In this document: piece by piece, positions 11,038 to 11,965 of the stretch
Position numbering within the stretch: position 1 is the first letter of the stretch
Layout of the letters: every line of letters starts with the position of its first letter
NCBI GenBank assembly: GCA_951406725.2
Contig: OX597822.1
Coordinates: 107,198,001-107,262,000 of the forward strand
Direction: 5' to 3'
DNA length: 64,000 nucleotides
Origin: Octopus vulgaris
Taxonomy: Eukaryota
Made by a program: the position numbers and the translations under genes
The notes under the pieces: generated by a model
What the model saw: only the letters and a program-made list of their open reading frames with translations
Database searches by the model: none
What the model was told of the DNA's origin: nothing

Positions 11038-11204
11038 TGAACACTACTATAGAAATATTCCTTTAAAAAAACGTTTCTTCTAATTTTTCCTAAATTTAAT
11101 TATTTAATCGTTACAGTTGAAAAGGTCTCAAAATGACCGAAACCGGTACTGAAATGTTCACTATAAAATTACTTTAGCATTTTCTATTTTTGACTTGTTT
11201 TTTC
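11038..11204 (+). mobile_element. Solo Penelope-type terminal repeat between (TA)n tracts, carrying a hammerhead motif
   Basis: 11111-11204 is homologous to 42466-42557, the 3' end of the Penelope relic. Confidence 0.75.
11111..11154 (+). ncRNA. Minimal type-I hammerhead ribozyme motif, U3-A8 core variant
   Basis: CAG-TTGAAAA-GGTC(TCAAAAT)GACC-GAAAC-CG-GTA-CTG gives stem I CAG/CTG, stem II GGTC/GACC, palindromic stem III ACCGGT and a GUA triplet. Confidence 0.75.
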
Positions 11205-11430
11205 ATATATATATATATATATATATATATATATATATATATACATACACACACACACACACACACACACACACACACACATATATATATATATATATAT
11301 ATATATATATATATATATATATATATATATATATATAAAATATTATTAGAGACAAAACCACTATTTTGCAAAACAAACAAGGAAAGACTTAATCAATACA
11401 TAAAATTTTAATAAATAGTCAAAAAAACCG

Positions 11431-11473
11431 CCACTACAATTGTTTCTTGTCTTGATCGACAATCTTCAGGTGG
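11431..11473 (-). ncRNA. Minimal type-I hammerhead ribozyme motif, canonical core (sense to the receptor pre-mRNA)
   Basis: Minus strand reads CCAC-CTGAAGA-TTGTC(GATCAA)GACAA-GAAAC-AATT-GTA-GTGG. All core residues are present, and stem III is palindromic (ACAATTGT). Confidence 0.82.
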
Positions 11474-11516
11474 ACTTCCAATAAGTCAGTTTCAATGAAA
11501 CTGACTTATTGGAAGT

Positions 11517-11559
11517 CCACCTGAAGATTGTCGATCAAGACAAGAAACAATTGTAATGG
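11517..11559 (+). ncRNA. Mirror copy of the hammerhead motif
   Basis: CCAC-CTGAAGA-TTGTC(GATCAA)GACAA-GAAAC-AATT-GTA-ATGG has a C-A mismatch in the stem I pair next to the cleavage site. Confidence 0.72.
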
Positions 11560-11760
11560 CGGTTTTTTTGACTATTTATTAAAATTTTATGTATTGATTA
11601 AGTCTTTCCTTGTTTGTTTTGCAAAATAGTGGTTTTGTCTCTAATAATATTTTATAATATTTTACTATAAAATTGGATTTAATCCTAAATCTGATTTTTT
11701 CCCTGTAAATTTGGATTTATTCCCTAATATTTATTATTATATATATATATATATATATAT

Positions 11761-11965
11761 ATTCTTGCCCGAGGATCGCAGCGGCGTGAAACTGGATCGC
11801 GAGTGAAACTTTCACTTCAAATAAACAGATATATATATATATATATATATATATATATATATATATATATATATGCACATATACACATACATTAGTTCTG
11901 TTTATTGAAGGTGAAAGTTTGCCTTGCGATCCAGTTTCACGCCGCTGCAATCTTCAGGAAGGAAT
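11761..11965. repeat. Tail-to-tail inverted repeat (arms 11761-11829 and 11897-11965) around (TA)n; each arm has a hammerhead-like motif followed by AATAAA
   Basis: Plus arm: CTTGC-CCGAGGA-TCGC(AGCG)GCGT-GAAAC-TGG-ATC-GCGAG. Minus arm: CCTTC-CTGAAGA-TTGC(AGCG)GCGT-GAAAC-TGG-ATC-GCAAGG. Stems II and III are imperfect. Confidence 0.7.

Follow-up and report, generated by a model that had tools for sequence, protein, structure and literature searches.

Hammerhead motifs beside a GABA-A receptor exon of Octopus vulgaris: probable ends of Penelope-like elements, one pair probably copied from a spliced leader

The terminal repeats (pLTRs) of metazoan Penelope-like elements (PLEs) carry minimal type-I hammerhead ribozymes, for which low cleavage has been described even as dimers (Cervera and de la Pena 2014, PMC4209133). 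Targeting of (TA)n, inverted copies or ends and one-sided tails are known PLE traits (PMC8557442), and a Hydra family is already known from octopus. In D. virilis an intron ends at helix I (PMC4209133), and intronless genomic copies are not described in the available part of that paper. For Poseidon, internal initiation of reverse transcription on sense RNA with an uncleaved hammerhead has been reported; its hammerhead was cleaved only with the protein of the element, and RNA-seq ends at the site were absent (PMC11167929). The retention of introns by PLEs has been called unexplained (Craig et al. 2021, PMC8557442). An antisense RNA template has been proposed, unspliced sense RNA being left possible, in a study that also noted for PLE pLTRs the initiator-like word encountered below (PMC3846280), and selection against intronless elements has been suggested elsewhere (PMC2377424). 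As the latter, in its available text, states that the "majority" of elements contain introns, exceptions may already be known. In the literature searched, outside which older subscription papers lay, no earlier report was found on intronless PLE copies, on octopus PLE hammerheads of the present kind or on abundant spliced PLE mini-copies.

The window, that is, the whole stretch of DNA analysed, comprises 64,000 nt of the O. vulgaris genome (G000:C9:107198001-107262000; genome 2.8 Gb). Five hammerhead motifs in the intron that follows a GABA-receptor exon had been described from it in the original prediction, and all five were recovered at their coordinates and on their strands (Table 1), two of them, motifs 2 and 5, being sense to the pre-mRNA as proposed. 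The assignment of the exon, the acceptor position of which was taken from the sequence, was borne out by its matches to GABA-A beta subunits. The host gene runs from high to low coordinates, and with the donor GT at 12135-12134 the cluster begins 173 nt into the intron, where about 170 nt had been claimed. This intron is approximately 122.4 kb long, the next exon, of 68 nt, starting at G000:C9:107087692, and further ligand-binding exons of the same gene were located at C9:106960160 and 106942160. Elsewhere, at G000:C15:56.9-57.4 Mb, a tandem array with more than 20 long-ORF matches to the Cys-loop ligand-binding domain, without stops, was observed, which we take to be consistent with the known cephalopod receptor expansion.

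Table 1. Features of the hammerhead cluster and its surroundings (positions in the window) and of a full-length copy of element B (positions in locus L212).
Feature	Position	Strand	Remarks
(TG)n/(TA)n microsatellite to the left of element A	10938..11036		TRF
Element A	11037..11204	+	5'-truncated PLE 3' end (pLTR), tail absent; antisense to host pre-mRNA
Motif 1, in A	11111..11154	+	intact minimal hammerhead
(TA)n(CA)n(TA)n microsatellite, A-B spacer	11205..11337		TRF
Element B, short arm	11339..11494	-	tailless, intronless, exon 1/exon 2 junction between 11483 and 11482; sense to pre-mRNA
Motif 2, in B short arm	11431..11473	-	intact, family-type minimal hammerhead
Element B, long arm	11496..11732	+	tail of ~75 nt, intronless, junction between 11507 and 11508
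Motif 3, in B long arm	11517..11559	+	hammerhead of motif 2 type with G-to-A at 11556
(TA)n between B and C	11733..11762		TRF row 11727-11762
Element C, left copy, with motif 4 (11764-11803)	11764..11828	+	U4C, broken palindrome
(TA)23-rich spacer between the two C 3' ends	11829..11897		TRF
Element C, right copy, with motif 5 (11922-11962)	11898..11968	-	tail-to-tail with left copy; sense; broken palindrome
GABA-A receptor beta-like (Cys-loop) coding exon	12136..12230	-	PDB matches GABA-A beta1/2/3, best E 0.002
Full-length B (L212)	donor 267, acceptor 2117, hammerhead 2141, tail 2329, ORF 2410-4929, donor 6594, acceptor 8427		

The description of the motifs as minimal type-I hammerheads of PLE terminal repeats in (TA)n was upheld for A and B, both of which were tied to ORF-bearing PLEs, and other parts of the original prediction held for some of the motifs. 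Bounding by (TA)n fails at the outer flank of motif 5; the sequences of the three supposedly unrelated families do differ, but A and B are both PLE termini. Core boxes are complete in motifs 1, 2, 3 and 5, whereas motif 4 has U4C; complementarity of stems I and II is kept in motifs 1 and 2 and in the majority columns of family C but weakened in motifs 3 and 5; and the palindromic stem III of motifs 1-3 and of the family C majority is lost from motifs 4 and 5 of the window. This leaves motifs 1 and 2 as the intact ones, and stem III dimers were predicted by cofold for motifs 1-3 only. With the hammerheads of PMC4209133, the window motifs share the core boxes, a short stem I, an extra nucleotide before stem II, the palindromic stem III, the U3-A8 variant, close pairs on opposite strands and thousands of dispersed truncated copies; for A and C, nothing essential differs from the hammerheads as described in the available part of that paper. 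Rfam recognised motif 1 alone, and weakly (HH9, E 0.3, sub-threshold), and Rfam miRNA matches in the cluster were discarded as artefacts of hairpins and microsatellites.

That the motifs are not chance matches is argued by the frequency of a perfect stem III palindrome, which was present in 22 of 32 candidates having core and stem II in 494 kb (334 kb around the locus and 160 kb drawn from 16 arbitrary places), whereas ten shuffles gave 5 of 60. With a scored descriptor, the 160 kb of arbitrary sequence yielded 9 motifs (0.1 after shuffling) and the 334 kb surrounding the gene yielded 17 (0.8 after shuffling), the window C copies falling below its threshold and motif 5 also failing a relaxed scan. 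This density of about one per 18 kb corresponds to an estimated ~157,000 motifs per genome (95% interval 72,000-299,000), and the introns of the host gene contain 6 sense motifs (five besides motif 2) and 11 antisense ones. Among 110 loci of A, B and C, 12 had a motif of another family no farther than 600 bp away, where 7.4 would be expected (P 0.075; 13/111 if the duplicate locus L123/L124 is retained), so that neighbouring motifs of other families are weakly enriched. Two other families within 600 bp were found at none of the 110 comparison loci, for which a Poisson estimate of 0.55% was obtained; the three-family cluster is locally uncommon, yet 0.55% would still mean hundreds of such clusters. 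In the commonest hammerhead type, with an ACGT palindrome, U often replaces core A6 (CUGUNGA) in near-identical copies (G000:C9:106938001-107272000 and the 16 arbitrary stretches), and this may be an amplified variant rather than decay.

Element A is 98-99% identical to dispersed genomic copies (40 of 587 candidates scored). Its motif 1 has a U3/A8 core and a 6-nt palindrome, with a predicted cut after 11148, and the 32-nt pattern from core to cut site has 1,820 exact genomic copies. In the parent copy L064, two pLTRs in direct orientation, 4.4 kb apart, enclose a reverse transcriptase (RT), a Cx4CxxC linker and a GIY-YIG domain, the Pfam matches being RVT_1 at E 0.0013 (below cut-off) and GIY-YIG at E 6e-5 (above cut-off). 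As far as they are described in the available part of PMC8557442, Neptune-clade PLEs have the RT and a CX2-5CxxC linker before the GIY-YIG domain in common with this parent, and also its tandem pLTRs, optional 38-nt tail and (TA)n targets. By the motif definition of that paper, A is classed as the end of a young EN+ PLE of Neptune type, a choice over Nematis that rests on the linker and overall look.

Several further remnants were observed. In family A (window 11111-11117 (+); L064), the 5' strand of stem I is CAG following a long pyrimidine tract, acceptor-like and at the start of the core, and the A tail holds a stretch complementary to the region of the first core box. A PLE subfamily related to A is represented by another inverted insertion at 41729-42690 of the window, which retains RT/EN remnants (65-75% protein identity) and a degenerate U3/A8 hammerhead at 42472. 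A short ORF at 23097-23432 (-), with neither a Pfam match nor a tblastn match to the B protein, presumably resembles a PLE endonuclease C-terminus. Broken reading frames at 10000-10937 (+), which end at the microsatellite, resemble, as we assume, the C-terminal restriction-like endonuclease of an R4/Dong-type LINE, and with this LINE-like remnant the tract may have received a fourth insertion that targets microsatellites.

Motifs 2 and 3 are the two arms of one 161-nt head-to-head inverted repeat, 99% complementary, and the element, like A, has 98-100% identity to hundreds of dispersed copies. Motif 2 has an 8-nt palindrome, a predicted cut after 11435 and 509 exact genomic copies. The change at 11556 in motif 3 adjoins the cut site and weakens stem I; as the family has G at this position, it is a private mutation or an assembly error. 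In widely spaced inverted B pairs, the hammerhead was found to be preceded by other sequence, which closes with a pyrimidine tract and AG, and the first 23 nt of the short copies were located 1.8-3.4 kb upstream in long copies, followed there by a GT donor, mostly GTAAGT. In L175 this intron (GTAAGT...TTTTAG) measures 1,824 nt, and microhomology is absent from the joint. Full-length B consists of exon 1 (~23 nt), a GT-AG intron (1.8 kb), the hammerhead, the tail, an ORF, intact and of 840 aa in L212, and a second, intron-containing repeat. A and B alike are terminal repeats of ORF-bearing PLEs, situated in (TA)n genome-wide. Both window arms show the exact joint of exon 1 to exon 2 of the full-length parent with the intron missing precisely, and precise loss of the parent's GT-AG intron, the test for a processed retrocopy, is thus observed. 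An initial classification of B as an ORF-less SINE was dropped once the long copies showed intron and ORF. The pLTR intron was seen to be a tandem series of units in which the donor region recurs.

The B protein contains SDKT, RIKWKAF (K for R) and a divergent RT motif B, as judged by eye against the available part of PMC8557442, and the ORFs of L212-L214 have a CxCX5C linker, with CxxC and CxH around conserved E and N. In the ESM Atlas it scored 0.95-0.98 to clusters in which HTH_animal, GIY-YIG and RVT_1 occur in 18-100% of members; Pfam gave no RT or GIY-YIG match, a PDB search with the protein returned nothing, and similarity between the A and B proteins was marginal (E 0.008). By its motifs and Atlas neighbours, B is provisionally assigned to the Hydra clade as a young PLE. 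Hydra-clade PLEs, including Hydra-1_Obim of Octopus bimaculoides, share with B a single ORF, DKT, the divergent RT motif B, the CxCx5C linker, a C-terminal GIY-YIG-type domain (putative in B) with CxxC and CxH, a canonical hammerhead, (TA)n targets, an inverted 5' copy and a one-sided tail, as given in the available part of PMC8557442. In contrast to Hydra-1_Obim, B has other hammerhead stems, KWK for RWK and an asparagine-rich insert, and constitutes a separate family; it departs from the Hydra-clade PLEs published there in its clear pLTR with an intron of at least 1.8 kb and in the intronless state of about 44% of the arms listed. The long asparagine-rich insert lies between RT thumb and linker (L212:2410-4929), as in rotifer PLEs (PMC3846280, available part).

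The proportion of spliced copies was determined by hand with a pattern that matches both forms. Among the first 100 listed of 671 matches, 44 were of spliced type (39 exact, 5 variants) and 56 unspliced. Among the matches listed, inverted pairs were spliced in both arms (10) or unspliced in both (14) and never mixed (P 8e-8 under independence), splice state thus agreeing in 24/24 pairs, the compound locus C1:40386879/40387218 (both spliced) having been left out; the subfamily letter was likewise common to both arms in 37/37 pairs, where 7.1 discordant pairs were expected. Spliced arms ended no more than 23 nt from the joint, at the initiator-like site TCACT, in 82 of 84 cases; since a part of exon 1 was required of these arms, the lower bound is biased, though not the upper. 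In general, B samples were picked by patterns requiring part of exon 1 or tail. Exactly one tail was present in all 28 spliced palindromes (17 selected for at least one tail), the centre junctions of which fell into 15 types with recurrent small loops. An extra 5' G was seen in 11 of 20 spliced arms, against C in 9/9 rows from long copies; microhomology with the other arm can explain most of this, so that a cap-derived G is suggestive only. An apparent extended 5' pattern of B was rejected, as it reflected microhomology with the inverted arm. In family A, 0 of 25 arms in 20 stretches were spliced (one false regex row, L005, was left out of the A-arm and 5'-G analyses), and the spliced class is therefore not general.

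B-type copies are likely, from these sequence features, to be dead-end cDNAs of a spliced mRNA leader. Transcription would begin at the initiator-like site of the 5' repeat and the intron would be spliced; RT would then prime at an internal start site, the tail end, ~245 nt from the RNA 5' end, and run off. The second arm would come from the same event, most probably by fold-back of the cDNA 3' end, stopping at the tail boundary in (TA)n, although double priming on one RNA may be an alternative, as the same data fit both. Copies carrying the ORF would arise solely by priming at the downstream repeat. In the three ORF-bearing B copies that were read far enough, out of 10 chosen regions, the 3' intron was kept in all, which argues that the propagating lineage keeps the intron and that the spliced copies are dead ends. 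It is a tentative proposal, possible but somewhat doubtful, that the hundreds of intronless palindromes shed by B prove a spliced sense template and one-event fold-back, with intron retention a matter of position. If so, RNAs spliced in the 3' repeat would be removed by nonsense-mediated decay.

B was also compared with related systems. D. virilis Penelope and the Anolis Poseidon PAc element (PMC2377424, PMC11167929) also have a pLTR that contains a promoter and a 5'-UTR intron, a tail defined by RT start sites within the element, and an uncleaved hammerhead that is copied; in the available parts of those papers they are described as intron-retaining, whereas in B precise loss is frequent and confined to short copies ending at the likely start site. 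Like B, the animal non-LTR retrozymes described in bioRxiv 10.64898/2026.07.22.740005 are short non-coding derivatives of hammerhead-bearing PLE pLTRs, but they consist of head-to-tail tandem units, while B forms a head-to-head pair with ends away from the ribozyme cut site. As the pairs are inverted, and as TRF found just microsatellites and a 21-nt duplication in the cluster, B was rejected as a retrozyme.

A different origin of the short B copies, from a self-propagating non-autonomous family with one or two masters that lost the intron once, was also considered. Hundreds of near-identical short copies and the recurrence of some centre junctions (8/28 and 4/28) would be expected of such masters, but both B subfamilies occur spliced as well as unspliced, and therefore the spliced form is not one old DNA deletion. 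The same centre junction is moreover shared by both subfamilies, among 15 types in 28 pairs, the 5' ends stop at the initiator-like site of the parent, and a master would itself need one splicing event on sense RNA. This origin is accordingly considered unlikely.

Element C represents an old family, with 34 matches to a degenerate pattern; from its majority columns, stem I has 6 bp and the palindrome 8 nt. The two window copies are 83% complementary over 72 nt (17% difference). They have in common a lesion of the stem III palindrome that is present in 0 of 29 other C copies, and also a loop variant and about the same start point. Because this private lesion is common to both, motifs 4 and 5 likely go back to a single origin, whether through a local inverted duplication or in one event. 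Among the 29 other copies, none formed a tail-to-tail pair and none had a co-oriented ORF within 1.5 kb upstream, so that C was not tied to an ORF; a head-to-head arm was found in 5/29 and a microsatellite 3' in 20/29. At L072-L101, stem I of several C copies is immediately preceded by TAACAG, which resembles an acceptor, and the window copies (11764, 11962) start at about this point; C may have spliced short copies too. A B palindrome at L024 (G000:C3:75796039-75799268) is flanked on its two sides by host sequence in inverted duplicate, which suggests fold-back duplication at (TA)n, a possible origin of the C pair.

It is quite unlikely that motifs 4 and 5 are two independent insertions, making four events, or that the B palindrome is an assembly artefact. 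The 17% difference between the C copies and their tail-to-tail arrangement, unlike that of other C copies, would suit two insertions, against which stand the lesion absent from 29 others and the common loop variant and start point. As for an artefact, four sequencing-run contig sets contain family B, and in these sets neither the B centre nor the C pair of this locus is bridged by any contig piece; an inverted arm was, however, present in 26 of the 30 best fetched genomic B copies, asymmetric tails recur among them, and there is a one-base difference between the arms in the window. The five motifs are thus likely to represent three insertions, A (motif 1), B (motifs 2 and 3) and C (motifs 4 and 5). 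The repeated targeting of one microsatellite tract that had been suggested is consistent with the (TA)n insertions, but with likely three events and not five.

The possible effect of the cluster on host RNA was assessed by folding the first 1.1 kb of the intron, where pairing with sequence beyond the motif itself was predicted at 100% for motif 2 and at 90% for motif 5. Transcription would reach the complement of motif 2 first, placing motif 2 in a 161-bp duplex rather than in a ribozyme, and no same-strand partner with the motif 2 palindrome was found in this intron. Inverted repeats of at least 60 nt and 80% within 2 kb numbered 35 rows in the 334 kb (13 more of them in this intron) and 16 in the 160 kb. 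The claim of a ribozyme/dsRNA hotspot affecting a neuronal transcript was thus unsupported, since the sense motifs are predicted to lie in hairpins and since one short inverted repeat is met with roughly every 10 kb; three events and a high background density also count against it. An inverted B pair was seen ~570 nt downstream of another Cys-loop receptor exon (L177, G000:C3:108366000-108375999), and closeness to receptor exons is therefore not unique. Another intron of the host gene was found to hold a hammerhead nearly identical to that published for Hydra-1_Obim (PMC8557442 supplement).

A functional role of the cluster, as a self-cleaving or dsRNA element modulating splicing or stability of the GABA-receptor pre-mRNA, is very unlikely, because the points in its favour, namely the position 173-1100 nt from the 5' splice site, the intact sense hammerhead of motif 2 and the predicted -258 kcal/mol of the B hairpin, the most perfect inverted repeat among the 35 rows in 334 kb, are opposed by the predicted full sequestration of motif 2, the degeneracy of motif 5, the youth of A and B implied by 98-100% identity to hundreds of dispersed copies, the five other sense motifs in introns of this gene, a longest exact exon/intron complement of 8 nt, and the poor cleavage of PLE hammerheads or their need for a PLE protein (PMC4209133, PMC11167929, available parts). 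The five motifs probably have no function in the GABA-receptor gene. The stable dsRNA that is predicted could be ADAR-edited, and the cluster may be ordinary ADAR-type dsRNA like many others in the intron.

Taken together, the five motifs are very probably host-neutral PLE ends, likely from three insertions into one TA-rich microsatellite, with the B palindrome a cDNA of a Hydra-clade spliced leader, an explanation in which splicing, start site and hairpin formation are all read from DNA. The flagged cluster as such is ordinary for this genome, and caution is advised in taking ribozyme motifs beside cephalopod neuronal exons as regulatory. Hammerhead pLTRs and inverted copies were already known, and what appears to be new, by the literature searched, is the abundant precise intron loss in short copies of a PLE family. 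This B family bears on the unexplained retention of introns by PLEs (PMC8557442) and on the question of the template (PMC3846280). With a spliced to unspliced ratio of ~44:56, intact 840-aa ORFs and strictly coordinated palindromes, it makes that question testable from the genome alone and also in an in vitro RT assay.
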